From assembly GCA_028703495.1 (NCBI GenBank), contig JAQVMT010000004.1:42479-106478 (forward strand): 64,000 nucleotides of DNA, read 5' to 3'. The notes beneath the pieces were generated by a model, which saw only the letters and a program-made list of their open reading frames with translations, was not told the origin of the DNA and made no database searches. How positions within the stretch are numbered: the first letter of the stretch is position 1; each line of letters starts with the position of its first letter. This DNA comes from Clostridia bacterium. GTDB taxonomy: Bacteria > Bacillota > Clostridia > Christensenellales > CAG-314. Made by a program: the position numbers and the translations under genes. Below are positions 7,008 to 57,906 of this stretch, piece after piece.

Positions 7008-8051
7008 ATGGAACAAATACCTCAACGACAACCTACGAGGAGCGTCAAGGTCAAAAATACTGTTATCGGCGGTGGAAGCCGAATAAAAATTCAGTCAATG
7101 ACGACTGCACGCGTGACCGACGATGACATATGCGGTGAGCTTGCCGCGCTAAAAGCCGAGGGTTGCGACATTGTCCGCGTTGCGGTAAACGATGTTGCCG
7201 ATGCTTTGGCGATAAAGAGCCGTGACTTTTTGGGAATGCCCGTGGTTGCCGATATTCATTTCGATTATAAGCTAGCTTTGCTTGCCATTGAAAACGGTGC
7301 GGATAAGGTGCGCGTAAACCCTTCCAACCTCGGCGCAAGGGAAAATTTCGTCAAGGTAATACACTGCGCGCGCGCTCACCATGTGCCGATACGAATAGGA
7401 GCCAACTGCGGAAGCGTGCACGATGCTGTAAACGTAGGGCAAAGTGTGTCGGACTCTCTCAAGGAATACGTCGGAGTGTGCGAAAACGAGGGCTTCTACG
7501 ACATTGTCCTTTCGGTCAAAAGCAGTTCGGTTCTTCAAACGATCGAGCTTAACCGCGAGGTAAGCCGCATTTTCGATTATCCCCTGCATTTGGGGGTTAC
7601 CGAAGCGGGAACGCTAAGCGGCGGATCGATTAAAAACGCCATAGGCATCGGTGCGTTGCTTGCCGACGGCATCGGCGATACGATAAGGGTATCGCTTTCG
7701 GCGGCTCCGTATGAGGAGGTCGCTTGCGCAAAGCGGATACTCCGCGCCCTCGATCTATACGGTGGTGTAAAGATAGTAAGCTGTCCCACCTGCGGGCGCA
7801 AAAAGGCAGACGTCATTGCGCTTGCATCGGAGCTGGAACGTGCGACTTCATCGATAAACGCCGACATTACCATCGCGGTTATGGGCTGCGAGGTCAACGG
7901 ACCGGGCGAAGCCAAGCAGGCAGACTTGGGAGTTGCCGGTGCGGTAGGAGGCGGAGCCGTCTTGTTCGAAAAAGGAAAGCTTATCAAAAAGCTCACGAAA
8001 GAGGAAATAATACCCGAGCTACTCAAGTATATCGACAGCTACTCTAAGTAA
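7008..8051 (+). CDS. ispG: 4-hydroxy-3-methylbut-2-enyl diphosphate synthase (flavodoxin)
   Basis: GcpE TIM-barrel signature IQSMTT...VRVAVN...VADIHFDY...VNPSNLG. The C-terminal 4Fe-4S motif CPTCGR is present. Confidence 0.93.
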   Translation: MEQIPQRQPTRSVKVKNTVIGGGSRIKIQSMTTARVTDDDICGELAALKAEGCDIVRVAVNDVADALAIKSRDFLGMPVVADIHFDYKLALLAIENGADKVRVNPSNLGARENFVKVIHCARAHHVPIRIGANCGSVHDAVNVGQSVSDSLKEYVGVCENEGFYDIVLSVKSSSVLQTIELNREVSRIFDYPLHLGVTEAGTLSGGSIKNAIGIGALLADGIGDTIRVSLSAAPYEEVACAKRILRALDLYGGVKIVSCPTCGRKKADVIALASELERATSSINADITIAVMGCEVNGPGEAKQADLGVAGAVGGGAVLFEKGKLIKKLTKEEIIPELLKYIDSYSK

Positions 8052-8092
8052 GCTTCGATTCGCGCTCAAGATCTTGAAAAACTATTTAACAA

Positions 8093-8160
8093 GCACACGA
8101 AAGAGGAAATTATACCCGAGCTACTAAAGTATATCGACAGCTACTCGAAGAAAAGATAAA
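8093..8160. repeat. Post-stop echo copy of the last about 64 nt of ispG (7988-8051), including a new stop
   Basis: aagcacacgaaagaggaaattatacccgagctactaaagtatatcgacagctactcgaag matches aagctcacgaaagaggaaataatacccgagctactcaagtatatcgacagctactctaag at about 93% identity. Confidence 0.9.
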
Positions 8161-8277
8161 TTTGCTCGGTTACTTTATCGGAAATATAGTTACGGGATAC
8201 AAAAATGCAACGATAAACGGACGTTAATCGCGCGAGTTGGCGACGTCATATCGGTTTAGCGCAAACAAAGGTGGAAA

Positions 8278-9828
8278 ATGCAAGGTATTACGGCGACAAT
8301 CAAGGAGAAAACCAACGGCAGATACGGCGATTTGCGATTGAAAAGAGCCGTTTTTTCCAAATCCGTCGGAGTTGTTACTTTTTCGTTTACCACAATGAAG
8401 GCTCTTTCCGAAGGTCAGCGCGAGGAAATTGCCGCAATTGTCAAGGCTTCGGAATTTGCGGCTTTAAGCTTTGCTGCGGAGTTCTCTTTGGAAACGCGAA
8501 GTGTCAAAAGCATTTTAAACAGCGTTGTTTCCTTCACAAAATCCGATTTCTTCTCCGTTTTCAAGTTCCTTGAGGAAACGCCCAAGGCGATCAAGGTCGA
8601 GGGCGACGGCGAATTTAAGGTAACGTTTACCGTCGATTCGGATATGGCTCGAACATTTGAGCAAATGAGCTATGTCCCGTCGTTGACCGAATACCTGCAA
8701 AGCGTGTATGCAAGTAACATTTCGGTCGAGCTTATCGAAAAGCAGGAAGCAGATTTCGACTTGGCGCAGGCGGTCAAGGACATCGACTATCGACAGGATT
8801 TGGCACAGCTGGTTGCTATGGGAACGCCAAAGCGCGAGGTGCTGGTCGAAAGAATCGGCGCGGTCGTCGGCAAGGAGGTTTCGGGCAATCCGATTTACAT
8901 TTCCGACGTCGAGGAGGGCAACGTAGTTATTTGCGGCAATGTCATCGAGGTCGCCGCTTTCGACGTAAAGAAGGAAGCTTCCAAGGTCAAGAAGGTTTAC
9001 AAGTATACGATCGAGGACTTTACGGGAAAAATGAAGGTGGTTTACTTTGCCAAGGAGGACGACAAGGACATCTTAAAGGTGCATATGAACGACACTATTT
9101 TGGTTTTCGGCAAGGCGGCGGTCAACGAAACGGCACACGAAATGCAGGTCGTTGCAAAGTGCATAACCTATTGCCATATTCTCAAGGGAGAAAAAATCAA
9201 CGTGCTTTCGGTCGAGCCCAACGCCGATTACATAGTCGTCAAGCCTCAACCCTATGAGAAAATCGAACAGCAAAGCCTTTTGGACGTGCTTGCTCCTACC
9301 AAAAAAGAGGGTGACGGCAAAACCTACGTTGCTTTCGACTTCGAAACGACGGGATTGAAGGCATTGGAGGATAAAATTATCGAAATAGGGGCGGTCAAGA
9401 TCGAAAACGGTGAAATTACCGAGATTTTCTCGACCTTTATCAATCCGCAACGCCCGATCGGTGCAAGCTCCACCCAAATTACGGGCATAACCGACGATAT
9501 GGTTGCCGATGCACCCGTAATTACCGCCGTCATTCCCGATTTATATAAGTTTTGCTACGGCTCGACTATAATCGCTCACAACATTGACTTCGATTACGCC
9601 TTTTTGCAGTATTACAGTGAGCCGACCGGTTATATCTTCAACAACCCGCGCGAGGATACTTTGGCGTTGGCAAAAGCGTTTTTCCGCAAAAAGGAAAATT
9701 TGAAAAACTCGCCGCCTAACTTCAAACTCCAAAGCATCGCAAGAGTCCTTAACGTTCACCAAGACGAAGCACACCGCGCTTACGACGATGCCCGAGTTTG
9801 TGCCGAAATATTCCTTAAAATGCAGTAG
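8278..9828 (+). CDS. PolC N-terminal-half homolog: N-domain plus OB fold plus DEDDh 3-prime-5-prime exonuclease, with no PHP or polymerase core
   Basis: Exo motifs YVAFDFETTGL, ITGITDDMV and IIAHNIDFDYAFL...HRAYDDAR are almost identical in pattern to the PolC proofreading domain. The upstream segment VKKVYKYTIEDFTGKMKVVYFAKED...LVFGKA matches the PolC OB domain. It lies between ispG and rimP, where polC sits in Bacillus. Good RBS (aaaggtggaaaATG). Confidence 0.75.
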   Translation: MQGITATIKEKTNGRYGDLRLKRAVFSKSVGVVTFSFTTMKALSEGQREEIAAIVKASEFAALSFAAEFSLETRSVKSILNSVVSFTKSDFFSVFKFLEETPKAIKVEGDGEFKVTFTVDSDMARTFEQMSYVPSLTEYLQSVYASNISVELIEKQEADFDLAQAVKDIDYRQDLAQLVAMGTPKREVLVERIGAVVGKEVSGNPIYISDVEEGNVVICGNVIEVAAFDVKKEASKVKKVYKYTIEDFTGKMKVVYFAKEDDKDILKVHMNDTILVFGKAAVNETAHEMQVVAKCITYCHILKGEKINVLSVEPNADYIVVKPQPYEKIEQQSLLDVLAPTKKEGDGKTYVAFDFETTGLKALEDKIIEIGAVKIENGEITEIFSTFINPQRPIGASSTQITGITDDMVADAPVITAVIPDLYKFCYGSTIIAHNIDFDYAFLQYYSEPTGYIFNNPREDTLALAKAFFRKKENLKNSPPNFKLQSIARVLNVHQDEAHRAYDDARVCAEIFLKMQ

Positions 9829-10077
9829 CCGAGCAGCAAAGCTGCTTTTTATGGCTACGCCCCTTACCCGACAGGCAGCAAGGCTGCTTTTTATGGCTGT
9901 CGCGAACAATGGCTTTCGTTTAGCGGATATCGCATAAATAATCGTGTTGGCGACAGGCAGCAAGGCTGCTTTTATGGCTACGCTCCTTACCCGACAGGCA
10001 GCGAAGTTGCTTAATATTGCTGATGCGAATAACGGGTTGCGTTTAGCGGATATCGCATAAATAATCGTATTGGCGAC
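9829..10077. repeat. Tandem repeat, two copies of about 125 nt, each containing the sub-repeat gacaggcagcaaggctgctttttatggct and a short GCAGC-aag-GCTGC hairpin
   Basis: Read directly from sequence. ...cgtttagcggatatcgcataaataatcg.gttggcgac recurs at about 9918-9951 and about 10038-10077. Confidence 0.85.
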
Positions 10078-10197: not shown

Positions 10198-10466
10198 TCA
10201 TATACTGTTAATAGGTTGTTTTATTAGAGTAGGATTTTCATTCTGCTCTAATTCGTTGTTTGGGGTTTTTTGTAACCTCGGGAAGAACCGGTTGTCGTTC
10301 GATTGATACTAAACGCCGATAATAATAGGTACAAAGGCAAGCTTCGACTGTTGCTTTTTGTGCGGGGTTTGGTATTGGTTAATTCGATCGAAAGCGGTTT
10401 TTTGCGGCGTTTTTGCGCTTTGCGGCGAATGCGCGGGGCTTCACACCTTTTTGGAGCAAGGAGATT

Positions 10467-10931
10467 ATGGCAGGTAAAAAAAATGTCGATGCAATTAAGG
10501 AATTGGTGGAGCGGTATGCTTTACCTTTAGGAATTGAGGTCGTCGAGGTTAGATTGGAGAAATTGCACGACGGGCTGAACCTGACTGTGTTTATCGACAA
10601 GGAAGGCGGCGTCACAATGGACGACTGTGAGACTTTGCATCGTGCGATTGACGACCCGTTGGATGTTTTGAATCCCACGGACGATATGCCGTATACGCTT
10701 AACGTTTCTTCACTCGGTTTGGATCGTCCCTTAAAAACCCAAAGGGATTTCCAAAGGAATTTGGGCAAGGAAATTACGGTCAAGCTTTATGCCGCGCAGG
10801 ATGGCAAAAAGATGTTCGAGGGCTTTTTGAAGTCCTTCGACAACGAGAGCTTTACCATCGAAACCAAAAAAGGTGAGATATCGTTTACCATAAGCAAGGT
10901 CGCTCATATCGAGCCTCTTTTAAGGTTTTAG
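10467..10931 (+). CDS. rimP: Ribosome maturation factor RimP
   Basis: DUF150/RimP pattern LPLGIEVVEVRLEK...LNLTVFIDKEGGVTMDDCE. RBS ggagcaaggagatt precedes ATG 10467. Confidence 0.88.
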   Translation: MAGKKNVDAIKELVERYALPLGIEVVEVRLEKLHDGLNLTVFIDKEGGVTMDDCETLHRAIDDPLDVLNPTDDMPYTLNVSSLGLDRPLKTQRDFQRNLGKEITVKLYAAQDGKKMFEGFLKSFDNESFTIETKKGEISFTISKVAHIEPLLRF

Positions 10932-36215: not shown

Positions 36216-39200
36216 TTATTTATCTGCGTAAGCAAAATAATGAATCCAAATATACGAATAGTAGCTTGCATCGTTGCCGCATACAATCGTAATTCTGTTT
36301 TCGTCGTTCACGTCCTCGATATGGGAGTCGAAGTTGGCGTAATATAGGCTTTTGTCGTATTCGATTAAGCCCTCGAGAGTGGGAGCTTTTTCGCTGTTAA
36401 ACTCCAAGAACTCGAGATTGTCGCAACCGCGGAAGGCGTTCGCGCCCACAACCTTCAGGGTTGACGGCAATACGATTCTCTTTACGTAAGTGTTGTTTTG
36501 CATAGCGAATGCCGATATTTTCACGACGCCCTCGGTTATAACCAAGGTTTCATCGGTGAAGTCGGAAATCATGATTATCATGGTTTTGGATCCGTTATAA
36601 AGGATACCGTTTTCCGAAACGTAATTACGATTCTTCTCGTCTACCTCGATGCTATCGACGGGGGAGTTAATAAAGGCAAACGGAATATCGAAGAAGCAAG
36701 TGCTTTCACTGATGAACACGTCAGTCAGCTTTGAGCAGCTGCGGAAGGCAAAGCTTCCGACAAATTCCAAGTCGCCCAAAGAAACCGAGTTTAGTCCAGA
36801 ACATTCGAACGAAGATCTGCCGATTGACACAACGTTTGCCAAATCGATTGAGTTAACGAAGCCGGCGTAAATGAATGCTCTGTCGGCAATGGATATTACC
36901 GTATCGGGAACGGCATACTCGGTGCCTTCCATTTGAGCGGGATACCATATTAACGAAGTAAGTTTTTTATCAAATAGAACGCCGCCTTGTGAGGCATAAG
37001 CCTCGTTGTCTTCCGAAACCTCGATGAATTTTACGTTTTTGCACTCAAAGAAGACTATTTCGCTTTCGATATCTGTCAAACCTTCGCCCAGATATATTTC
37101 CTCTAGTCCCGAATACGCGAAGCACTCGTATCCCAAATAGCTTATACAGGAGAAGTCGAAGGCGGTCAAACTTGTACAACCGTAGAAGACTCGAGAGTAT
37201 AGCTCGCACAAATCGCAGCCCAATTCGATGCTCGTAAGGCTTTCACAATTCATAAAGGCTTCATCCTCGACATAGTAACAGTCGGGAAAGCTTAATGATT
37301 TAAGAGATCTGCAATTTTTAAAAGCACAGCCGTATATCTCGTAGATGCAACCCAATACTTCGACACTCTCTAAGGAGTAGCAATTCTCGAAACCCGCCAA
37401 GCATTCGATGCTTTCCGGGATGGTGATTTCCTTTAATGAATGACAGTTGATGAAGGCTCCCTCGATATAATATACGCCTTCCATTCCCATAATGTACTCT
37501 AAACTAGTACAGCCATTAAACGCGCAATATATTTCCTCGACCGAAGCAGGAACAAAAATGGATTTCAGACTTGTGCAGTTTGCGAACATCCAATTCATAT
37601 TAGTTGTATTTTCGGGTAACGTTATGTTTTCAATGGACCTGCAGTTGAAGAAGGTCTGTCCACCGTTTAGTTCCTCGACATTTTCCAAGCCTACGACTTC
37701 GGTAAGTGAGGTAAAGCCCTTGAATGCGTCCGAGCCTAAGACGGTCAAGCCCTCACCCAATATAACCTTTGTAAGCAAAGGCTTTTCGGTTTCATTGATA
37801 TTTGAACCTATCATTCTGGAATATGCTAAAGTTCCTACTTCCATATCGATTATTTGATATGTATTTGAGAAGAAAGCCAAGCTACTAGAAGCTGTTCCAA
37901 GCATATTGCCGCCTGTTACGGTATCGGGAATTGTAAATTCTCCTGAGAAGTCCCATACCGATGTGGTGTACATCATAGTTTTATCGTTGTTGTACATAAT
38001 TCCTGTTGCTTCGTCCACGAACATATACTCATTGTCGTCCGAAACAGAAAAGCTCTTTAGAAATGAGTTGTTGCAGAAAGCTTCTTGCGAGATGGCGATA
38101 ACGTTATCGTGGAAGATAACTCTCTTTATACTTTCGGATCCAAACGCAAGTCCCTTAATATTGACACTTCCGTAGAAGTGCAATATTTCGAGATTAGTCA
38201 TGAAGCAGAATGAGAACCTTTGCATACTCGGACCTGTACCCAGATCGATGTCGCCGTGGAATTCCAAAATTCTGCAGTTCGGAATTGATGCCATAAAATC
38301 TCCCTTTGTTGTGAGGTTGCCATAGAAGTATACTTCCTCCAAGCTTTCTGCAGAGAAACACTGCTCGAAGGTTGCATCGGCGTAGCAGGTGAATTTCTTC
38401 AGATCACGTAAGCCGTTAAATGCTCGCGCTCCTACAGTAAGGGTTCCCGCTGGTAATGTAAGTTCCTCTAATTCCCAACAGAAATAAAAGCAGCTTTCGC
38501 CCACATACGTTAATTGAGTGTCCTGTAAGTTGATTGACTTCAATCCCAAACATTCATAAAAGCACAAATGATCAATTCGAGTTAGTTGCGAGCCTTCCTC
38601 GAAGGTTACCTTTTCCAGATAGAAACAGTAGATGAACACACTTTGCATCAATGCCGTAATTTCTTTGGGAATCCAAACCGACGTAAGGGTATAACATCTG
38701 CTGAATGCATTTCTACCGATTTCGGTTATTCCCATATCGTTGGGAATAGCCACATCACCTCCCTTGCCGTTGTACTTTTTTAATACTCCGTCTACAACGA
38801 TAAACTCCTCTACCTGATCGTTTTCTGCTTGTGCTTCGACTGTATCGACAATACCATCGAACCTGTCGCTTGTTACATTTAAGACATCGCCGTCGAAGTC
38901 GTAGCTCCCCGTTATCACATTATTTGCCGTAATGTTGTTCACTTCCTCGACTGGAAGATTAATTTCACCTAAATTGATTATTGTTTGGTTGAGAGCGTAG
39001 TCCATTAACATCAAGTAAAAGTCGCCGTCCACGTATTGCATAAAGTCGGTTACATCCAATCTGTATTCGTTGGCTTCACCTCGCTTCCACTTATATGCGG
39101 GTATCGCGTAGGGATACGCTGTACTCACCGTTTCTCCGCCGTCAACGCTCTTACAGATAAAGAAGTTTGAAAGATAGTGATTGTCATAAACCTCCATATT

Positions 39201-42197
39201 GACGTAAACCTTGTCGTTCTCGTAAACCAATCCCGCATCCAAAACCATAGGATTTTCCGAGTCGATAAGTATCGGGAAGGTCATGCTTTGAGTCGAATAT
39301 TCGCCTTCCCCATCGACTTCTGCTATAAGCTCTAATTCCAACTGCTGATTGTTGGAAAAAGCAAAGTCTTCAATTAAAATGTTTAAGATATGTGAAGGCA
39401 TACTCGCCGATCCGTTGTCTAAATAAGTGCTTGTAACGTCCACTGCATATGCTCCGTAATATTCCGTACCCGAGGCAACGTCTCTTAAAATGTATGTAAG
39501 CTTGGTGATGTTGCGCAACAAAGACAGATTTACGCGGAACAGCGCGCGATTTCCGTAGACTTGTTGAGATAATGCGATATAACTCTCATCGGTTTCGGGC
39601 CTTTCATAATCCATTCCTTCGGGCAAATTCCAAGTTATATATCCGCCGAACGGGATATAGTAATCCCACCCAAACAAGTTGTACAGCCCCATCAAAAAAG
39701 TGTTCGTAATGTACGGATCCTTATTGTCGTATGCCGTGGAGTCGAACACGAGAGCTTTCGTCCAATCGCCGTAAAAGCTTAGGAAAGGTATAGACAAATC
39801 TACATTATCTTTAGAGTTTAAGGATACGAAGCCTTCGACGTATATTCCATTCTCAAACTGATCCAAATAGGCTATGTCTTTATTCGTAAGATACAAGACC
39901 ACCGTAATTATAGCGGTTTGTCCGCCTTCTACCGTTACTGCCGTGCCTTCTATGGTGCCGTTGCTTACTGCAAGCGTCCAATCGGGATTTAACTCATACG
40001 GAACAAGTCCTAAATCGCCGTAATTGAAGGTTTCGGTAATTACGTCGGGATTTATCGCATAGCTTAAACTCTCGGTTCCGAAGTTTACCAAGTTGAATTT
40101 AAGAGTGTAAATTCCCTCTTTATTTTTGTCGTGACCGATGCTTAGGCTTGTCGAATCCTTTCCCGTCACCGAAAGGTACGCGTTGCTCAAGACGGCGGCT
40201 TGAACGTCGGCAAGTCCGCTTCCCTGATGTCTGGGCGAGTAAACCACGCCGTTTATGTCGCGAAGCGCAGTTGCCGTGCTCATCACCAGTTGCTTTGCAA
40301 CAGTTTGTTGCCGAGCCTCGCTTAGTTCCGGCATAGATTGCTTCAAATATTGCTTAACCGCAGTCAAAATACCTGCGGCGTTAGGCGAAGCCATACTCGT
40401 GCCGCTCATATAGCCGTATGCGTTTTTCAAATAACTGGAGTATACGTTACCACCGAAGGATGCAAAATCGATTCCCAACTCGAGGTTGCACAATGGTCCC
40501 CAAGCCGAATAGTCGTTTATGGTGTAATAGAAATCCTCTTTATCCAACCTTACGGTGATATTACTCTGCGAGCAAAGCCGTTCAATACTCAACGCATCTT
40601 CAAGATCCACGACGCAAAGAGCGAAGTCGAATTCATCGGACACCGAAGGCACAACATTCGTTTCGATCGTGTTTCCGACAATACAGCCAATAGCGCCTTG
40701 AGCCTGTGCATTGAGAGCCTTTTGCTCAAAGGACAACTCGCCGCGCTTTACGAACACAATTTTGTTCGTAACGTCGATGCCCTCATAGTCCTCGTCGACA
40801 CCAGTTCCCGCGATGAAAACAATTTCAAATTCTCCCGAATCGTTTTCGCCGAGCATTTTCCCGGTAAAGTCCAAAAGGATTTGACTTGCGGTTTGACAGT
40901 TCCTTATTGTGTACTTGCTTTCCCCGATAATAAAATAGAAATTTACCGTGCTTTCGACCGAAGCGGTAGCGTTAGCCGCGTTGTACGAGGCGGGACCGCT
41001 TATTGTGCCGGTATCGGGAATATCCGCCGAATCCCCGCCCGACGTATTTTCGATAAGGTAAGTTTTGCTGTATGAATTACCCGCCGAACATACGATCGTA
41101 ACGCCGACCTGTTTGGCAAGGTCGAGCGCGTTACAACAAAAGTCCATGCTCTCGCTTTGGTAGGTAGGAAATCCCATAGGAAAGCCCATCGAAATATTTA
41201 CAACATCCACCCCTAGCAAAATGCAGTCGTTCAGAGCGCTAATGATGTTGACTATGGTTGCGCTACCCTGTGCGTTTCCTACCTTCATAGCCACAATTTG
41301 CGCATCGGGGACAACACCCGTTATAACGTTGTCGTTACCTGTCAAAATACCCGAAACGTGAGTGCCGTGTCCGTTGTCGTCCTCCCCGCTCGCGTTTTTC
41401 GATACATAGTTGAATTGAAACGCAATTTTATCCGAATAATATGCCTTCGTGGCATTTGTTCTACTCGCACACGAAAGCTTGGGAATAATAGTGTTCAATT
41501 CGGCTTTGGTAAGTGATATGGATGACGGAGCCTGTGCAAAGGCGGTATTGGCTCGCATAATGCCGGTATCGATTACCGCAACGACCATTCCGTCACCTTG
41601 GTATTCGGTGCCGTTTGTGGCGATTCCGTTAGTGCTCATAACCGAGGAATAAACAGCTTCGGTGTCCACGCTGTTTATTACCATATCCGTAGATACGATC
41701 ACGTTTTTAACTCCCTCAATTTTGCATATGGTCGAAATATCTCCGTATCTGACCTCCGTTGTAAAGGCATTGAGCAGAGCCTTGATGCTGAAGTCGGCTT
41801 CGGTTACGTAGCCGCCTGCTACAAGTGCATCGATCACGCGTTTCTGCGTCACATCGATTTTTGCGGTAGCCAAGTCGCCCTCCGATGAACTCACGAACTC
41901 GGTAAAGGAACAAGACATATCCTGTTCGGAGTAAATTTCAACCAAAGAGTTTCCTTTGATTTCCACAATCACACCGACCATTTCGTCCGCACTGTGCAAA
42001 TCGGTTGCCCTGGTCACGTCGGCGCTTAACGCCGTGCTTATGTCCACCGTGCCATCGAAGACGGAAAAGCCCGCATTCCCAGACTCTACCTCGACGGGCG
42101 TTACGGTGACTCTGCCGTTGGCAAGACCGCAACCCGCCAGAATCAACGCCATAGCCGCCAACAAGTAGACTATCATTGACATCTTTCTGTTTTTCAT
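36216..42197 (-). CDS. Giant cell-envelope lipoprotein: S8 subtilisin-like peptidase with a PA-domain insert, a middle beta-rich region and about 900 aa of C-terminal BspA-type leucine-rich repeats
   Basis: Lipobox LILAGCG. Catalytic triad motifs VAVIDTGI, HGTHVSG and GTSMASP. PA insert between His and Ser. C-terminal repeats follow the IP..V..IG..AF..C..L pattern (for example ITEIGRNAFSRCYTLTSVWIP). GGAGG RBS before ATG 42197. Confidence 0.85.
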   Translation of the reverse strand: MKNRKMSMIVYLLAAMALILAGCGLANGRVTVTPVEVESGNAGFSVFDGTVDISTALSADVTRATDLHSADEMVGVIVEIKGNSLVEIYSEQDMSCSFTEFVSSSEGDLATAKIDVTQKRVIDALVAGGYVTEADFSIKALLNAFTTEVRYGDISTICKIEGVKNVIVSTDMVINSVDTEAVYSSVMSTNGIATNGTEYQGDGMVVAVIDTGIMRANTAFAQAPSSISLTKAELNTIIPKLSCASRTNATKAYYSDKIAFQFNYVSKNASGEDDNGHGTHVSGILTGNDNVITGVVPDAQIVAMKVGNAQGSATIVNIISALNDCILLGVDVVNISMGFPMGFPTYQSESMDFCCNALDLAKQVGVTIVCSAGNSYSKTYLIENTSGGDSADIPDTGTISGPASYNAANATASVESTVNFYFIIGESKYTIRNCQTASQILLDFTGKMLGENDSGEFEIVFIAGTGVDEDYEGIDVTNKIVFVKRGELSFEQKALNAQAQGAIGCIVGNTIETNVVPSVSDEFDFALCVVDLEDALSIERLCSQSNITVRLDKEDFYYTINDYSAWGPLCNLELGIDFASFGGNVYSSYLKNAYGYMSGTSMASPNAAGILTAVKQYLKQSMPELSEARQQTVAKQLVMSTATALRDINGVVYSPRHQGSGLADVQAAVLSNAYLSVTGKDSTSLSIGHDKNKEGIYTLKFNLVNFGTESLSYAINPDVITETFNYGDLGLVPYELNPDWTLAVSNGTIEGTAVTVEGGQTAIITVVLYLTNKDIAYLDQFENGIYVEGFVSLNSKDNVDLSIPFLSFYGDWTKALVFDSTAYDNKDPYITNTFLMGLYNLFGWDYYIPFGGYITWNLPEGMDYERPETDESYIALSQQVYGNRALFRVNLSLLRNITKLTYILRDVASGTEYYGAYAVDVTSTYLDNGSASMPSHILNILIEDFAFSNNQQLELELIAEVDGEGEYSTQSMTFPILIDSENPMVLDAGLVYENDKVYVNMEVYDNHYLSNFFICKSVDGGETVSTAYPYAIPAYKWKRGEANEYRLDVTDFMQYVDGDFYLMLMDYALNQTIINLGEINLPVEEVNNITANNVITGSYDFDGDVLNVTSDRFDGIVDTVEAQAENDQVEEFIVVDGVLKKYNGKGGDVAIPNDMGITEIGRNAFSRCYTLTSVWIPKEITALMQSVFIYCFYLEKVTFEEGSQLTRIDHLCFYECLGLKSINLQDTQLTYVGESCFYFCWELEELTLPAGTLTVGARAFNGLRDLKKFTCYADATFEQCFSAESLEEVYFYGNLTTKGDFMASIPNCRILEFHGDIDLGTGPSMQRFSFCFMTNLEILHFYGSVNIKGLAFGSESIKRVIFHDNVIAISQEAFCNNSFLKSFSVSDDNEYMFVDEATGIMYNNDKTMMYTTSVWDFSGEFTIPDTVTGGNMLGTASSSLAFFSNTYQIIDMEVGTLAYSRMIGSNINETEKPLLTKVILGEGLTVLGSDAFKGFTSLTEVVGLENVEELNGGQTFFNCRSIENITLPENTTNMNWMFANCTSLKSIFVPASVEEIYCAFNGCTSLEYIMGMEGVYYIEGAFINCHSLKEITIPESIECLAGFENCYSLESVEVLGCIYEIYGCAFKNCRSLKSLSFPDCYYVEDEAFMNCESLTSIELGCDLCELYSRVFYGCTSLTAFDFSCISYLGYECFAYSGLEEIYLGEGLTDIESEIVFFECKNVKFIEVSEDNEAYASQGGVLFDKKLTSLIWYPAQMEGTEYAVPDTVISIADRAFIYAGFVNSIDLANVVSIGRSSFECSGLNSVSLGDLEFVGSFAFRSCSKLTDVFISESTCFFDIPFAFINSPVDSIEVDEKNRNYVSENGILYNGSKTMIIMISDFTDETLVITEGVVKISAFAMQNNTYVKRIVLPSTLKVVGANAFRGCDNLEFLEFNSEKAPTLEGLIEYDKSLYYANFDSHIEDVNDENRITIVCGNDASYYSYIWIHYFAYADK

Positions 42198-46376: not shown

Positions 46377-47729
46377 ATGAGAATTGTTAAAAAATTACTC
46401 GGGTTTGCGGTAAAAACCATAATTATTGCAATTTTGCTTGCGATTATGTATTTTGCCGGTTATTGTGCAGGCAAGTACAAGAGCGACGAAAAGTCGAACG
46501 AAACGGGTGCCGATGCGGCTTTATCGAAATCGCTTCCGACTTATTGCTCTGCGTATGCCGCAAGCAACTCTTTCGCAGCGACATCAAAGGCTTGGCAAGG
46601 CTCTAAGGTCGGGTTGCTCTCCATATATGCGGACGGCACAGAGAAGTCAGTAGAGGAGCAATTGGACGAGGAGGTCGAAAAGCAGCTTGAACAGCTCATA
46701 ATCGAGGAGTTAGAGGCTTTGACCGAGGAGGAAGACACGGGGTTAATGGAAGGAGGCTTCGCCCAAAAGGTCAAATCGATTATAAACGGAGATTTCAAGC
46801 TTAATTCCGCTTCCTTTTTGGAAGCCTTGCTGAACTTGATTTTTAAGGATTTTTTGGAGCTCATTCCGACGTTAGGCGGCATTTTGGCTATCTGTGTTTT
46901 GAGTAGTGTTATCGTAAAGTTCAAGAGTAACGCTATGGAGTCTACGAACGATACGGTTTTTTATGCCTGTTACGGCTTAATAATCATCCTGACGTTGAGC
47001 GGCGTTTGGAGTCTGTATAAACTCACGTCCGACACGGTCGGGAAGATGCAAAGGCTTATGGAGGGGTTGATGCCCGTGTTGCTTACCTTTATGGTTGCAT
47101 TGGGCGGTAACGTAAGCGCGAAGGTTTACCAGCCCGCAATCGCGCTTTTGAGTAACGGCGTAGCAACGATAATTTTTAAAGCGGTGATGCCGTTGTTTAT
47201 AGTATCGGTGATATTTACCATACTGTCCAACCTTTCAAAAAACGTTCGGCTGGACAAATTCGCTTCCTTTTTTCGATCGGCGACGACCTGGATAATTGGA
47301 ATCACCTTTACGATTTTCACTTCTTTTCTGACTATGCAGGGCTTGACGGCTTCGACAATCGACGGAGTAAGTATTCGAGCGGCAAAGTTTGCCACAAAAA
47401 ATTACATACCGATTTTGGGCGGCTACCTAAGCGACGGCTTCGACCTGATTATGTCGAGTACAATGCTTATAAAAAATGCTTTCGGAGTAGCAGGCTTGGT
47501 GCTTTTGATTGTAGTCGTGCTTGCGCCGATAGTTAAAATATTGGCGTATATCATGGGTTTGAAGCTCATCTCCGCTATTACCGAACCGATAGCCGACAAG
47601 CGCATAACCTCGTTGCTATTCGACACGGCAAAGAATATGAATATACTTTTTGTGGTTGTGCTTGCGGTGGCGTTTATGTTTCTGATTACGGTAATGCTGA
47701 TTATTATGACCGGCAACGTGTTTACATAA
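46377..47729 (+). CDS. spoIIIAE: Stage III sporulation protein AE
   Basis: About 450-aa polytopic membrane protein with signal/TM at the N-terminus. Size and position as for SpoIIIAE. Confidence 0.8.
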   Translation: MRIVKKLLGFAVKTIIIAILLAIMYFAGYCAGKYKSDEKSNETGADAALSKSLPTYCSAYAASNSFAATSKAWQGSKVGLLSIYADGTEKSVEEQLDEEVEKQLEQLIIEELEALTEEEDTGLMEGGFAQKVKSIINGDFKLNSASFLEALLNLIFKDFLELIPTLGGILAICVLSSVIVKFKSNAMESTNDTVFYACYGLIIILTLSGVWSLYKLTSDTVGKMQRLMEGLMPVLLTFMVALGGNVSAKVYQPAIALLSNGVATIIFKAVMPLFIVSVIFTILSNLSKNVRLDKFASFFRSATTWIIGITFTIFTSFLTMQGLTASTIDGVSIRAAKFATKNYIPILGGYLSDGFDLIMSSTMLIKNAFGVAGLVLLIVVVLAPIVKILAYIMGLKLISAITEPIADKRITSLLFDTAKNMNILFVVVLAVAFMFLITVMLIIMTGNVFT

Positions 47730-52476: not shown

Positions 52477-55400
52477 TTAGTCGTTTAATTTAAGATCGGT
52501 TTTGGTCTTTGCCGTGCCGTCTTCGGGACTGTCGTCCTTTTCGTGCGCGGCATCGGCTTCGCGTTGCGCGCTTATGTTGTCGCTTTCGGTGGCGGCGACC
52601 TTATCGTGAGCTTCAACCGCGGTCGTTTCGGCTTCGGGTTCGACCTTCAAGTCGGTTTTATCGGGCTTTTCGATGTTATTCTCAAGCTTCAAATCGGTTT
52701 CGGGTTCGACGGTTGCGGTCACGTCCTCGGATTTGTCCTCGGCTTTTTGCGCGGTCAAGTCGGTTGGCTCCTCTGCAAAGTCGGCTCTGGTTTCGGGAAG
52801 CTCGTCAAGGCAGTTGAAAGCGAATTTACACTGAATACTGTCAAGCTTGTCGAGTGCATTCTCGGCGGTTTTCTTATCTACGTTAAGGTCCTCGTCGATG
52901 AGAATCCATTTATTATCGTCATGGTTGGTAAACGGAGCAACGTCCAAGCAAGCCAAATACACCAAAAGCACCTGTGTATCGTCAAGCGATTGCCAATCCA
53001 AGCGGTTTTTCTTGGTATCAAGCACTTCCAATTCGATATTGTCGCCGAATTCCAATCCTAACTTCTTGTCGCTTATGTCGCGCAAGGTGCGGTTTGCCTG
53101 ACGAATGAACTTATCCAAATACTCTTGAGCCTGTTTATTTGAGTTAAACTGACGGTTGACGACGGCGGCAAGCTGTGCCTGTTGGGCTTCCAACAATTTC
53201 TTTGCCTGGGTCTTATTGCCGTACTTTTCCTTGGCATCCGTGAGGATGTTGTTTGCATTATCCAATTCGCCGCTTTTGTGCGTTCTTTCGTCGTTAAGCT
53301 CCTGAAGCTTTTCATCGCACTCTTTGCCGTGCTTGCTAAGCTCGCGCTTATTGGCTTTTTCAAATTTGGATATTTCCTCCTCTTTATCCTTAATGGCTTT
53401 GGCATTTTCCTCCAACTCCTTTTCGGTGTTCTTCTTATCGGCAACGGGGACGAGGATTATTTCCCTTGCCCACTTTATGTCGGAATCGTTTTGGCAGGCG
53501 TTGAGCTTATCCTCCGCATCCTTTTGCGAGGCTTTGTTCTTCTCCAACTCGGCATCGGCTTTGTCGAGCTCCTTCTTCAGCTTATCGCCGTTGGCTTTTT
53601 CAGCGGTGGGAATAGCGGCGAGGACAACCTGTTTGTCGTACTTTTCCTTGTCGGATTGCTCTTTCTTTGTCTTAAGCTCGGCAATTTCCTTTGCCAAAGC
53701 ATCGATTTTATCCTGTCCGTCGAACGGCTTTTCCTCGGTGGATTCCACGACCTTAATGTCGGTTTTCTCCTTATTGACCTCGGTAAGGAGGGCTTTTTGT
53801 CTGGCTTGGTTCTTCTCCAAATCCTTTTTGGCGGCGTTTTGTTCCTTCTTTAGCTCGTTTTGCTTGTCGTCGTTTTCCTTTTGGAGCTTATCTAGCTCGG
53901 CAAAAACGACATCGCCCTTGCCCTGCTTAAGAGCTTCCTTATATTCCTCCTGCGTAGGCGTAAGCTTCTTGCCGGCAAAGAAGTCCTTTTGCTTTACGGG
54001 CTCGCTTTGTGCGCGAAGCACGTTGGCTTTGGCTTGATCCAACTCCTTCTCGCTCTTATCCAGCTTTTCCAAAACTTCCTTTGCCTTTGCGATACGCTTA
54101 TTGGTTTCGTCGCGTTCTAGCTTCAAGCTCTTTAGCTTTTGCGCGAGGGTTTCGAAGAAGTGCTTTACGTCAACGGGTGTATAGCCCCTGCCAAAGTACT
54201 TTTGCGTTGTCTTGAGCTTGCGCTTGGGGTCGAGATCCTCCTCGGCTTCGGCAATTTGAAGCTCCAACTCCGCCAAGCGTTTTTCCAGCCCGTCCAGTTC
54301 GTTAAGAGCCTCGTCCTTTTCGCGTGAAACGGCGGCTTTCTTCTCGTCGAACATCTTTGCGGCTTCGAGGTTTTCGTTGCTCTTTTCCACGTTTCTGCGG
54401 TTATTGAGCTGTTCCTCATTGTACTGCGCCTGTGTAAAGCCCAAGGAGCGGATTTCGTCCGAGTTCTGCTTGATCTGCTTTTGCTTTTCCTGCTCGTCGC
54501 TTATCTGCTTGTTTAAATCCTGTATTTTTTGGTTTAGATCGGCTTGCTTCTTTTGCAGCTCCTCCAACTCTTTTTGCCGTTTATCCGCTTCTTTTTTGTC
54601 TTCGGCTTGCTTCTTTTCGGCTTCCTTGGCGGCAACCTGCGCTCTCAAAGCCTCTTCTTTCTGCTTATTCAGCTTATCCGCTTCGGCTTGCTTCTCGGCA
54701 ATCTGCTTGTCATAGTTTTTGAGGTCGTTATCTATCGAAGCGATTGCGGCGATAATTACGGCGCGTTTCTTATTTCCGTCCTCGGTTGCGTTATTTTTCC
54801 TTTCAAGCTCCTCAAGAGCTTTTTGCGCTTGTTCCTTACTTTTATGTAACGCGGCTTCTTCTTCCTTGAGCTGTGCCAACTGATGCTTCAATTCCTCGGA
54901 GTTATCCTTTTGCAGAATCTTTCTTGCCTTGTCGCTGTTGATTGCCACAAGCAGCTTTGCATCGTTCTTTTCGCGCGCTTTGTTCAGCTCCTCAAGCTCC
55001 TTCTTGGCATTATCCACGTTGGAGGAATCCACGCTGAAGCTTTCCTTCTCGTTTTCGATTTCCTTTATTTTTTCATCGATAGCAACCAATTCACCGCTTA
55101 GCTTATCCACATCGGCTTGACGTTCCTTTATCAATTCCTTGTTTTCGGGACGTTCGGCGAGCTTTCTCAACCTGTCGACTTCTCTTGAGTCGAAAACCTG
55201 CTTGCTCTCGTAATACGCCTGCTTGACCATGCCGAAAAATTCGGCGTTGCGGCTTCCCGTAAACTTATTGAAAAGCTCCTGATTTAACAAGCACTTTTCC
55301 AATGCATCCAAAAAGCTTCCCCCAATTTCTGCATCCAAATAGTCGATCACCGATTTATAGTTAAAGCCCAAAAGCACGAGTCTTCCGTTGACCTCGCCCG

Positions 55401-55644
55401 CCAAATAGCTGTTAAGCTTGTTCTTCACACTCTTGAGTCCGGCACAATATCTTTTGTCCTTCAACTCGAAAAAAATCTCGATATTGGCGTTTTTGGCGTA
55501 GATATCGCTACGAAAGACCTGATTGATGCAGTCGATTAGGTTCGTTGCGTGCGTCCAATCGTAGTTTTCGGCTTTGTCGTCCATCTCGAACTTCAAAGTC
55601 TGTTGTTCGACCAAGTCGTTGTAGTTGACCTTCAATAATTTCAT
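52477..55644 (-). CDS. Large cytoplasmic coiled-coil protein with SMC/Rad50/SbcC-like terminal head segments, lacking Walker A and the LSGGE signature
   Basis: About 800 aa of heptad-rich K/E/A/L/Q sequence. The C-terminal block LGLEFGDNIELEVLD...SLDDTQVLLVYLACLDVA...KWILIDEDLNVD...ENALDKLDSI aligns by pattern with the SbcC region TLSGGE...SLFLDEGFGTLD..ALDALDAL. The N-terminus MKLLKVNYNDL..QTLKF mimics a Rad50 head start, but no GxxGxGKS/T is present. GGAGG RBS before ATG 55644. Confidence 0.6.
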   Translation of the reverse strand: MKLLKVNYNDLVEQQTLKFEMDDKAENYDWTHATNLIDCINQVFRSDIYAKNANIEIFFELKDKRYCAGLKSVKNKLNSYLAGEVNGRLVLLGFNYKSVIDYLDAEIGGSFLDALEKCLLNQELFNKFTGSRNAEFFGMVKQAYYESKQVFDSREVDRLRKLAERPENKELIKERQADVDKLSGELVAIDEKIKEIENEKESFSVDSSNVDNAKKELEELNKAREKNDAKLLVAINSDKARKILQKDNSEELKHQLAQLKEEEAALHKSKEQAQKALEELERKNNATEDGNKKRAVIIAAIASIDNDLKNYDKQIAEKQAEADKLNKQKEEALRAQVAAKEAEKKQAEDKKEADKRQKELEELQKKQADLNQKIQDLNKQISDEQEKQKQIKQNSDEIRSLGFTQAQYNEEQLNNRRNVEKSNENLEAAKMFDEKKAAVSREKDEALNELDGLEKRLAELELQIAEAEEDLDPKRKLKTTQKYFGRGYTPVDVKHFFETLAQKLKSLKLERDETNKRIAKAKEVLEKLDKSEKELDQAKANVLRAQSEPVKQKDFFAGKKLTPTQEEYKEALKQGKGDVVFAELDKLQKENDDKQNELKKEQNAAKKDLEKNQARQKALLTEVNKEKTDIKVVESTEEKPFDGQDKIDALAKEIAELKTKKEQSDKEKYDKQVVLAAIPTAEKANGDKLKKELDKADAELEKNKASQKDAEDKLNACQNDSDIKWAREIILVPVADKKNTEKELEENAKAIKDKEEEISKFEKANKRELSKHGKECDEKLQELNDERTHKSGELDNANNILTDAKEKYGNKTQAKKLLEAQQAQLAAVVNRQFNSNKQAQEYLDKFIRQANRTLRDISDKKLGLEFGDNIELEVLDTKKNRLDWQSLDDTQVLLVYLACLDVAPFTNHDDNKWILIDEDLNVDKKTAENALDKLDSIQCKFAFNCLDELPETRADFAEEPTDLTAQKAEDKSEDVTATVEPETDLKLENNIEKPDKTDLKVEPEAETTAVEAHDKVAATESDNISAQREADAAHEKDDSPEDGTAKTKTDLKLND

Positions 55645-56208
55645 AATTTCCTCCGTTTTTTGCGTAACTCCGTACGCCCGTGCATAATAATGCAAGCCGA
55701 TGGCGCAGCCTAAACAACGAAAAGTTCACACTGCGACCTATAATACTTGGCAACATTATATAACATATCACTCTCTTTTGCAAGTGTTTTGCGGAATATC
55801 GCCGAAAATCCTCTGCAAAACTCATAATTTTTTGCATATATTCATTAAGACGATGCATAAACAACAATGTGCCGCTAATATATCGATGCTACTCTTTTGT
55901 TGCATTGGTATCGTTGCGAATCACCGAATATGTAACATGCGCATACCGCGTATATACCGAAGTTGCCCTTTTGTCGTGGCGGTATTTACGCGACTACTCA
56001 AATATGTAATATACGTACCACTAATGCCGAGGAGTCGGGAATCGAGCTTGAACCCGCCCTTCGAAGTAAATAGTCGGGAATATATGCAAAAACGCTTGCA
56101 ATTCGGCGTAAAATATGTAATAATTATTTTGGGGTGGGATAGATTTTACGTATTATGCGTGGCATAATACGTATACTAATCCGTATGCGTAATAAAAGGA
56201 GGTCAGAT

Positions 56209-57906
56209 ATGAGTAGCGTTGGTCTTTTAATCGAAAACGGTGTTCTGGTCAAGTACGAGGGCGGCGGTGAATGCGTTGTAAGCGAGGAAATTGTCGAGAT
56301 AGGCGAAGGCGCATTCTCCGATTCGGAGATTACCTCCATCGTTTTGCCGGAGGGAGTGGTAAAAATAGGCAGAAACGCCTTTAAAAACTGCAAGATGTTG
56401 ACGGAGGTCGGAATACCCTCGACCTTAGAGAAGCTAAGCTCCGGCTCGTTTTATGGTTGCGAGAGCTTGGAGTCAATCGACTTATCCACTGTGAAGTATA
56501 TTCCCGATAGGTCGTTTATGAACTGTGAAAGCCTTAAGGATATTCTTTTCTGTGCGGAGCTTGACAGCATCGGAAACAACGCCTTTGCCAACTGTACGAG
56601 CTTGGTTAATGTTGATTTGCCCCTTTGTATAAAGAGTATAGGCGATTCGGCATTTTATGCCTGCGTTAATCTGCTGGATATAACCATCTGTGCCGAAACC
56701 GAGTATATCGGCTCCAACGTCTTTTTAAGGGACGACGATTTGGTCGTGTCGGTGATAGGACTTGAGCCCAACGAGGATTGGGACGAGGAGTGGGACTTCG
56801 GCGGTTGCACGATTGTCTATATCGACGATAATTTGAGCCGCGAAAACCTTTGTGGCAACTGTGACGCGTGCGGCAAATCCTGCGAGGACTCTGCCGAACC
56901 CGTCGTTCAAACCGAGGTCGCCGAGGATATCGAGTGTGACCAACCCGAGAGCCAAGCTCATCCGGAATGCGAAACAGCATGCGAAACGGACTGTGCGGAA
57001 CCCGAGAGCCAAGCTCAACCCGAATGCGAAAGCACAGGCGATGCCGATACAAACGAATGCGAAGGAGAATGCACAAAGGAATCGGATACTGCCGATGCCG
57101 AAAGCTGCGCGGCAGTTGACGAAGGTGAAGCCGTTAACGATGGCTTAACATGTGTGGGACAAGATATAAACGATACTTGTGCCGATACGGAGCATGACGG
57201 TGATAAAAAGGGTGAAGAATCTCCAGCCGAAGAATCAGACGAAGCAAAGGTTTTTCAAACCGATGCCGATGAAGAAAAAGTGATTACCGAAAAAGAAACG
57301 GGAACCGGAACAGATGAAGAAAGAGTGATTACCGAAAAAGAAACAGAAACCGAAACAGAGAGCGATATATATAAGGAAACCGATGCCGTTGAGTACGGCG
57401 CTCCTACTAAGGCGCAGGATGTTGCAATTGAATTTGAGGACGAGGACGAGGTCGGCGAACCGAGATTCGAGATTGTCGAGGGAGTGTTGACCGCATACTA
57501 CGGAGAGAGCAAGAGAGTAGTAATTCCCGAAGAGGTTACCGAAATCGACGACTATGTATTTTTCGGGCACAAGGAAATTCAAGAAGTAGGATTCCCGACA
57601 GGACTAGCGAGGATCGGGAAGCAGGCGTTTTACGAGTGCGAGCTTATCAAATCGGTCGTATTGCCCGATTCGTTGATGTCAATAGGAGCGATGGCGTTTT
57701 CTGCGTGTAAGTCGCTTACCTCGGTGTATATTCCCAAAGACGTGGTGAGCATCGATTTTAACGCATTTTCCTTTTGCGACAAGCTTACGATATATTGCGG
57801 TGTGGAAAAGGAGCCGTTCGGCTGGCATCCCGACTGGAATCTGTTTATGCGGCCGGTGGTTTGGGGCTACGTTCCCGACAAGGACGGCGCAACGAACGCA
57901 GACTAA
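56209..57906 (+). CDS. BspA-type leucine-rich-repeat protein, no signal peptide, with a central Cys-rich acidic tandem-repeat linker
   Basis: LRR_5-like units IVEIGEGAF..., VVKIGRNAFKNC, SIGNNAFANCTSL and SIGAMAFSACKSL occur at both ends. The linker carries CDQPESQAHPECET / CAEPESQAQPECES and EEKVITEKETGTGT / EERVITEKETETET repeats. Strong RBS aaaggaggtcagatATG. Confidence 0.75.
   Translation: MSSVGLLIENGVLVKYEGGGECVVSEEIVEIGEGAFSDSEITSIVLPEGVVKIGRNAFKNCKMLTEVGIPSTLEKLSSGSFYGCESLESIDLSTVKYIPDRSFMNCESLKDILFCAELDSIGNNAFANCTSLVNVDLPLCIKSIGDSAFYACVNLLDITICAETEYIGSNVFLRDDDLVVSVIGLEPNEDWDEEWDFGGCTIVYIDDNLSRENLCGNCDACGKSCEDSAEPVVQTEVAEDIECDQPESQAHPECETACETDCAEPESQAQPECESTGDADTNECEGECTKESDTADAESCAAVDEGEAVNDGLTCVGQDINDTCADTEHDGDKKGEESPAEESDEAKVFQTDADEEKVITEKETGTGTDEERVITEKETETETESDIYKETDAVEYGAPTKAQDVAIEFEDEDEVGEPRFEIVEGVLTAYYGESKRVVIPEEVTEIDDYVFFGHKEIQEVGFPTGLARIGKQAFYECELIKSVVLPDSLMSIGAMAFSACKSLTSVYIPKDVVSIDFNAFSFCDKLTIYCGVEKEPFGWHPDWNLFMRPVVWGYVPDKDGATNAD

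Follow-up and report, generated by a model that had tools for sequence, protein, structure and literature searches.

The gene at the polC position

The present study deals with a stretch of 64,000 nucleotides (nt) of contig JAQVMT010000004.1 from a Clostridia bacterium, called the window here, in which the chromosomal place of the DNA polymerase gene polC is taken by a gene for a protein of 516 amino acids (aa). The gene order in the window, assigned with Pfam and NCBIfam, is uppS-cdsA-dxr-rseP-ispG-[516-aa gene]-rimP-nusA-ylxR-infB. The open reading frame (ORF) described in an earlier note on this DNA was found at the same place and on the same strand (Table 1), and the motifs which that note had quoted (YVAFDFETTGL, ITGITDDM, AHNIDFD, HRAYDDA and the OB stretch VKKVYKYTIEDFTGKMKVVYFAKED) are all present in its translation. 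The protein is 100% identical to MDD4291209.1 of NCBI, which is named 'exonuclease domain-containing protein [Clostridia bacterium]'.

The slot itself was established by comparison with other Clostridia. A full-length polC is found in exactly this slot in Petroclostridium sp. X23 (locus L034), in Defluviitalea phaphyphila (L067) and in the loci L057 and L080, and Lachnospiraceae retain the upstream half of the synteny. The short gene stands between rseP/ispG and rimP-nusA-ylxR-infB in about 40 GTDB species representatives among the loci listed, and the same arrangement is seen on long contigs, namely a JGI scaffold of 2.39 Mb and a contig of 973 kb. The short gene is a positional ortholog of polC. 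The earlier note had placed the polC slot between rseP/proS and rimP; the slot was borne out by these comparisons, but proS was not, as ispG follows rseP and there is no proS.

Domain composition and homology to PolC

The relation of the protein to PolC was analysed segment by segment with profile-profile alignment. From the loci of a genome scan 39 full-length polC genes were taken, of which 18 were aligned, and the family of the window protein was represented by a profile of 50 sequences. The hhalign comparison gave a single colinear alignment of family positions 5-518 with PolC positions 4-586, with a probability of 100% and an E-value of 3.7e-79. When the segments were compared alone, the N-terminal domain, the OB fold and the exonuclease each matched their PolC counterparts in the same order, whereas the linker between OB fold and exonuclease found no match (Table 1), and therefore the PHP-N segment of about 95 residues which lies at this place in PolC has been deleted and replaced. 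The parts of PolC beyond the exonuclease, i.e. PHP-C, Pol3 (palm, thumb and fingers), HhH and the C-terminal clamp-binding tail, are absent from the family, and the C-terminus of the protein coincides with the last helix of the exonuclease. These findings agree with the earlier note, in which the protein was read as a stand-alone PolC-type N-terminal domain, OB fold and exonuclease lacking the polymerase core, and they show that its first 340 residues are not an unrelated fold.

Table 1. Features of the polC slot in the window and, for the segments of the 516-aa protein, the hhalign comparison of each segment alone with PolC.
Feature	Position	Strand	Residues	Basis or remark	hhalign alone: probability, E-value	Family positions	PolC positions
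ispG, upstream neighbour defining the polC slot	7008-8051	+		Pfam GcpE, E 5e-115; synteny table			
Shine-Dalgarno-like sequence AAAGGTGG	8267-8274	+		3 nt between its end and the ATG; read from sequence			
Gene for the 516-aa PolC-derived stand-alone exonuclease (N-terminal domain, OB, linker, DEDDh exonuclease)	8278-9828, including stop	+	1-516	ORF, ATG start, translation			
N-terminal domain, counterpart of the PolC N-terminal domain	8278-8832	+	1-185	two alpha/beta type II KH-like subdomains, then a long helix	88%, 2.9e-6	13-159	25-170
OB fold, counterpart of the PolC OB domain	8845-9180	+	about 190-301	Pfam, hhalign, AlphaFold2 model	98.2%, 4.5e-14	within 186-302	214-319
Linker, in place of the PolC PHP-N segment	9181-9318	+	302-347	hhalign	no match	300-349	none
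Linker element Y318-x-x-V-x-P323-x-P-Y	9229-9255	+	318-326	Y318 and P323 each in 349/354 members			
Beta-clamp-binding-like pentapeptide QQSLL	9268-9282	+	331-335	family consensus Q-x-[DNS]-[LM]-F			
DEDDh 3'-5' exonuclease	9319-9825	+	348-516	Pfam, TIGR00573, 2p1j, hhalign	100%, 8.5e-67	within 346-516	417-579
rimP, downstream neighbour, first of rimP-nusA-ylxR-infB, defining the polC slot	10413-10931	+		Pfam RimP_N and RimP C-terminal domain			

The exonuclease carries the complete set of catalytic residues, with D354 and E356 in Exo I (DxE), N435 and D439 in Exo II (NxxxD) and H499 and D504 in Exo III (Hx4D). It is matched by Pfam RNase_T over residues 351-512 (E 6e-34, 118 bits against a cutoff of 24), and the OB model tRNA_anti-codon matches residues 216-296 with 26.7 bits (E 5e-6), slightly below its cutoff of 27 bits. 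Neither PHP nor DNA_pol3_alpha was found in the Pfam scan of the protein. Among the NCBIfam models the PolC model PRK00448 ranks first (E 4e-49), with 167 bits against an equivalog cutoff of 873, and the second PolC model TIGR01405 gives 147 bits against a cutoff of 1043, i.e. below PolC membership. In the case of TIGR00573 (dnaq) the score of 115 bits exceeds the cutoff of 71.5, which makes the protein a DnaQ-like DEDDh member at the level of the domain. As it has neither a polymerase nor a PHP domain and scores far under the cutoff, the 516-aa protein is PolC-like and not a PolC. No dedicated Pfam or NCBIfam family spans its full length.

A sequence search of the PDB pointed in the same direction. 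The top match is the exonuclease domain of Thermotoga maritima PolC (2p1j, E 1e-32, 116.8 bits), E. coli epsilon follows at 1e-11 and about 46 bits, the weaker matches lie below 23 bits, and no RNase T chain is among the PDB matches. The AlphaFold2 model of the protein has a mean predicted local distance difference test score (pLDDT) of 88.4 and a predicted template modelling score (pTM) of 0.52; the low pTM may be read as domains that do not hold a fixed relative orientation. In the model the OB region is a five-strand beta barrel, and the best Foldseek match in the PDB is the cryo-EM structure of Enterococcus faecium PolC (9qpc, E 7.6e-18 over 386 aligned columns). The predicted fold of the N-terminal domain, with its type II KH-like subdomains, resembles NusA, Era, RbfA, KhpB and S3, and DnaA domain I and DciA, which are protein-protein modules of the replisome, fall in the same fold class. 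KH-like folds have been predicted for the N-terminal domain of PolC by Timinskas et al. (PMC3919608).

The linker and a putative clamp-binding motif

The replaced linker has two conserved elements. The element Y-x-x-V-x-P-x-P-Y is as conserved as the catalytic residues and has no counterpart in PolC; residues 311-330, which include it, are modelled with a pLDDT of 87-91. The pentapeptide which follows resembles a beta-clamp-binding motif. Its Q is kept in 342 of 354 members (97%), L, M, F or I stands at position 4 in 349, and 339 have F or L at position 5. At a fixed distance ahead of the exonuclease (median 16 aa), 111 of 115 members have a relaxed clamp pattern; elsewhere in these proteins the pattern has a background rate of 0.056 per 45 residues. 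In the model the pentapeptide lies in coil with a pLDDT of about 71, as would be expected of a short linear motif.

The form QL[SD]LF is reportedly the one taken by bacterial beta-clamp-binding motifs. The PolCs of the compared set end in ...PESNQLSLFD, with the exception of the ORF of locus L040 (7801-11865), which ends without the C-terminal QLSLF present in all the others. The QQSLL of the window is also very close to QMSLL, which is annotated as the clamp motif of a clostridial DnaE1 in the available text of Timinskas et al. (PMC3919608). On comparing the sequences, the C-terminal clamp motif of PolC appears to have been lost along with the polymerase, and a putative motif of the same type is present at a new, internal position.

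Size, conservation and distribution of the family

Proteins of the short type are numerous. A word-indexed search gave 840 relatives, of which the best 120 are almost all 490-565 aa long with the same domain content. A HMMER search of 1.84 billion cluster representatives gave 340 clusters (50% identity) at E<=1e-30; the best 150 of these are of the short type, mostly of about 500-540 aa with some shorter partials, and none has the length of a PolC. Identity of the members to the window protein is only about 30%. Among 354 full-length members (median 513 aa), each of the six DEDDh catalytic positions is kept in 348-353 sequences (about 98.5% or more) and the OB residue G220 in 353. An identical protein is contained in an independent Logan assembly. 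By these sequence patterns the short-type proteins are a large and old family under purifying selection. A neighbour-joining tree was made of 154 exonuclease domains, drawn from the family and from PolCs. In 43 of 50 bootstraps the family stands apart from the PolCs sampled, which would be compatible with a single origin of the family; this tree has no root, and its PolC sample is heavy in Lachnospiraceae.

The carriers are gut and rumen Clostridia, labelled as Christensenellaceae, Christensenella sp., Ca. Neoclostridium, Ca. Scatosoma, Ca. Coproplasma or 'Clostridia bacterium'. Among the 80 GTDB loci listed, the taxon labels of the short-type and PolC-type loci do not overlap, and no assembly gave both a short gene and a PolC, which is weak evidence. 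One PolC of the comparison is atypical (locus L041, 9005-13063, 1353 aa), with a shortened N-terminal region and a position outside the usual ispG/rimP neighbourhood. A likeness of its N-terminal part to the short protein ('WIKDP') was considered and was found by BLASTP to be coincidental.

Search for polymerase genes near the short gene

Pfam detected no polymerase among the large ORFs of the window, the two largest being an S8 protease with leucine-rich repeats (LRR) and an ORF of 1071 aa. In a tblastn search with the 39 PolCs the sole match in the window was the OB-to-exonuclease region at 8869-9822, with no remnants of the core. Among the related loci, no polymerase gene lies within 10 kb of the short gene in about 45 loci of very divergent members, and in 89 loci the ORFs of at least 700 aa are only purL, infB, antisense artefacts, a DUF5717 protein and an SLH protein. 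A metagenome scan with a profile of the PolC core gave no match from a carrier contig among the 80 PolC matches listed, which are an arbitrary sample.

Proposed role and alternative explanations

The combination of slot, domain order and missing core suggests that the carriers dropped the PolC polymerase and kept the proofreader. In our reading, to which we give an even chance, the gene is the positional ortholog of polC cut down to its non-polymerase modules, and its product is a clamp-tethered proofreader acting in trans. At primer termini the protein would be tethered to the DnaN sliding clamp by its linker motif. Single-stranded template, or a 3' end that has frayed, would be gripped by the OB fold, and misincorporated 3' nucleotides would be stripped off by the exonuclease, so that a separately encoded proofreader would work in trans in functional analogy to E. 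coli epsilon. The KH-like N-terminal domain probably keeps whatever replisome contact it makes in PolC. The polymerase served by this putative free-standing proofreader is probably DnaE1. In Bacillus subtilis the PolC exonuclease corrects errors of DnaE in trans within a complex of DnaE, PolC and template (PMC5627055), and the short protein would continue this existing job. Moreover, clostridial DnaE1 retains a conserved putative epsilon-binding surface though no epsilon is known there, some Clostridia have been reported to possess DnaE1 only, and the authors of that study asked whether DnaE1 is the main clostridial replicase (PMC3919608). On the likeliest reading, the carrier lineages have lost the PolC polymerase and replicate with DnaE1 alone. 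The simplest path would be an in-situ reduction of polC once DnaE1 took over replication, with the proofreading and accessory modules staying under selection. The wider proposal, that a Christensenellales-like radiation of gut and rumen Clostridia discarded the PolC polymerase in favour of DnaE1-only replication with a free N-terminal domain-OB-exonuclease proofreader bearing its own clamp motif, is a tentative one, which we rate somewhat below an even chance.

Several points weigh against this reading. The predicted DnaN binding is drawn from a short linear motif only, and the window's own version, QQSLL, ends in L where most members have F. The carrier genomes could encode a PolC, full or exonuclease-less, at another place. 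The complete genomes listed in the accessible part of a 2026 survey include only nine DnaE1-only Firmicutes, with no Christensenellales among them. Clostridial DnaE1 has an intact PHP proofreader (PMC3919608, PMC12926913), and therefore a second proofreader is not obviously required. Lastly, the exonuclease activity, interactions and phenotype of the protein are predictions from its sequence.

Two alternatives keep a PolC polymerase in the cell. The protein may be a sub-functionalised paralog, i.e. polC was duplicated, a polymerase copy (full or exonuclease-less) moved elsewhere, and the copy at the ancestral locus kept the N-terminal domain, OB fold and exonuclease as an extra or complementary enzyme. 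We consider this unlikely, though a serious possibility. A complementary partner is conceivable, since exonuclease-less PolCs are known in Clostridia and Negativicutes; that of Acidaminococcus, of 1191 aa, consists of N-terminal domain, OB, PHP, Pol3 and HhH (Timinskas et al. 2014). PolC is moreover present in nearly all Clostridia with complete genomes, as far as the available survey text goes, and polC can lie outside the canonical slot, as in L041, which lacks the usual neighbours. Against it, an extra duplication and a relocation are needed, and reduction in situ is simpler given the exact positional orthology; the disjoint taxon labels and the lack of an assembly with both genes among the listed GTDB loci also speak, weakly, against a paralog, and the conserved clamp motif speaks for an autonomous protein. 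A simple split of polC is unlikely as well, and the idea that the protein is one half of a PolC holoenzyme, assembling non-covalently with a separately encoded PHP-Pol3 core, is in our view very improbable. The protein would supply all the modules which a bare PHP-Pol3 core lacks, and E. coli epsilon, an exonuclease of its own that binds the PHP domain of alpha, offers a model. But the exonuclease of PolC is inserted inside PHP, and here PHP-N is deleted and replaced instead of being retained. Gene fissions usually leave the two halves as neighbours, whereas no polymerase was found adjacent to the short gene or in the 10 kb around it in the divergent loci mentioned above. The protein also stops at the last exonuclease helix without a tail like the PHP-binding tail of epsilon, and it has a clamp-type motif of its own.

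The remaining alternatives take the protein out of replication or out of function. It is improbable that it is a non-replicative nuclease, one whose KH-like and OB domains would recognise RNA or DNA with damage, and whose DEDDh domain would trim 3' ends of rRNA or tRNA or act in repair. The resemblance of the N-terminal domain to the RNA-binding KH folds listed above would suit such a role, many DEDDh enzymes are RNases, the gene adjoins ribosome-maturation genes, and some database entries name members '3'-5' exoribonuclease'. These names are, however, generic automatic labels, and the neighbourhood carries no functional information because it was inherited from polC. The exonuclease is nearest to the proofreading domains of PolC, by the PDB scores given above and with no RNase T among the matches; the KH-like fold class also holds the replisome modules DnaA domain I and DciA, and the clamp-type motif favours a role in replication or repair of DNA. 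As the window comes from a metagenome-assembled genome and small duplications flank the gene, one could suspect that polC is decaying into a pseudogene here, or that the assembly or a frameshift has created an artefact. This explanation is extremely improbable, and conservation across the family effectively refutes it: 354 divergent sequences share the architecture and the length and keep the catalytic residues, the identical protein is present in the independent Logan assembly, no remnants of the PolC core are found downstream or elsewhere in the window, and AlphaFold2 models the protein with confidence (pLDDT 88). The idea of an ancestral PolC from before the fusion was also rejected, since the family is limited to a subset of Clostridia and PolC is far more widespread, and since a simple fusion cannot yield the topology with the exonuclease inside PHP. 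A role in anti-phage defence was likewise rejected; PADLOC gave only generic DEDDh domain matches (residues 347-515), and the context is a conserved housekeeping operon.

Comparison with known systems and significance

The putative clamp-tethered proofreader derived from polC has its closest relative in PolC itself, as known from B. subtilis, Geobacillus kaustophilus (3F2B) and E. faecium (9QPC). The two share three homologous modules (N-terminal domain, OB fold, DEDDh exonuclease) and their order, the chromosomal slot and a clamp pentapeptide of the same type. The short protein, of 516 aa in comparison to about 1430 aa for PolC, is devoid of both PHP halves, palm, thumb, fingers and HhH, and because these are absent it cannot polymerise. 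Its exonuclease is terminal whereas that of PolC is inserted in PHP, and its clamp motif is internal, between OB fold and exonuclease, whereas that of PolC is C-terminal. In case of E. coli DnaQ (epsilon), the likeness lies in a separately encoded DEDDh proofreader, a role which is predicted here, and in the TIGR00573 score of the window protein above the dnaq domain cutoff. Epsilon is said to have its own clamp-binding motif, QTSMAF, beside the catalytic domain. On the other hand, epsilon has neither N-terminal domain nor OB fold, its C-terminal tail for binding the PHP domain of alpha is absent from the window protein, its clamp motif follows the exonuclease whereas the motif of the window protein precedes it, and the similarity amounts to 46 bits as against 117 for the PolC exonuclease.

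The exonuclease-less PolC (N-terminal domain-OB-PHP-Pol3-HhH; Timinskas et al. 2014) is likewise a natural PolC variant of the same classes and illustrates that the modules are separable, but its deletion is the reciprocal one, with the polymerase kept and the exonuclease lost. The Exo-DnaE1 fusions of Bacteroidetes, DinG (8zef) and Cas2-DEDDh (8fy9) also join a DnaQ-like DEDDh domain to other modules and give similar domain-level matches; their partner domains are different, none has the PolC N-terminal domain with OB fold, and none is found in the polC slot. The family with N-terminal domain, OB fold and exonuclease was not found described in the literature searched, which included the accessible parts of two large surveys of Pol III, where no carrier genome was seen. 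The 2026 survey, in its available text, admitted a stand-alone DnaQ only when it resembled a validated one closely or could be modelled confidently with DnaE, and that text makes no mention of a PolC remnant; a literature search on PolC together with Christensenell* gave nothing relevant. Hence what is undescribed is the architecture, the relocated clamp motif and the status as a polC residue, while the domains are known and the mechanism is plausibly of a known type.

Timinskas et al. (PMC3919608) raised the question of how PolC and DnaE1 share the work of clostridial replication. If a large lineage keeps only the proofreading and accessory modules of PolC at the polC locus, this would be natural-experiment evidence that DnaE1 could be the sole replicase in Clostridia and that the exonuclease, N-terminal domain and OB fold of PolC would have a selectable function independent of PolC polymerisation. 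If the proposal is true, a replisome of PolC and DnaE1 has been naturally converted into an E. coli-like replisome of 'alpha plus separate epsilon'. The family also makes the role of the PolC N-terminal domain accessible to study. There is a practical side as well. At least one short family member, P0278 (498 aa, JGI), bears the source name 'DNA polymerase-3 subunit alpha (Gram-positive type)' although it has no polymerase, and surveys based on orthology tables could therefore count its kind of genome as PolC-positive. For these gut lineages, which are abundant, calls of PolC presence or absence made from such tables may be wrong, and so may forecasts of the gut Firmicutes that PolC inhibitors (e.g. 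ibezapolstat) would target.

Flanking regions and other genes of the window

The regions on both sides of the short gene carry small duplications. Upstream, the last 76 nt of ispG with the stop codon (7976-8051) are duplicated 102 nt downstream at 8078-8153 with 87% identity, in the intergenic region before the exonuclease gene, and the gap between ispG and the short gene is 226 nt in the window because the end of ispG is duplicated. In several relatives (L091, 10001-11551; L093, 10001-11521) the short gene begins inside ispG, with 11 nt common to both genes, an arrangement suggestive of coupled translation. Downstream, the spacer between the exonuclease gene and rimP is 585 nt long in the window and only 45-150 nt in relatives. 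It holds a direct repeat of 108 nt at 9847-9954 and 9970-10077 with 87% identity (region 9833-10077), and inside this repeat a unit of hairpin and T-run, GCAGCAARGCTGCTTTTTATGGCT, is present in four copies; the intact unit is absent from the rest of the window. The earlier note had connected the unusual protein with the small duplications of this genome. That connection is not supported: the architecture is common to hundreds of divergent lineages and therefore long predates this genome.

Further genes of the window are described for completeness. The 1071-aa ORF (52477-55695, reverse strand) has no Pfam match and lies in a stretch whose AT skew on the forward strand is strongly negative (-0.29); it is also called in an independent Logan assembly, with 1055 aa and again no Pfam match. 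The S8 protease (36216-42197, reverse strand) is a subtilase of 1992 aa in which PA and Fn3 are combined with leucine-rich repeats of the BspA type, and another BspA-LRR protein (583 aa) is encoded at 56155-57906 on the forward strand; both are probably surface proteins. A SpoIIIAE homolog lies at 46377-47729 on the forward strand, and relatives have spoIIIAA-AE downstream of the same operon; therefore the organism is probably an endospore former.

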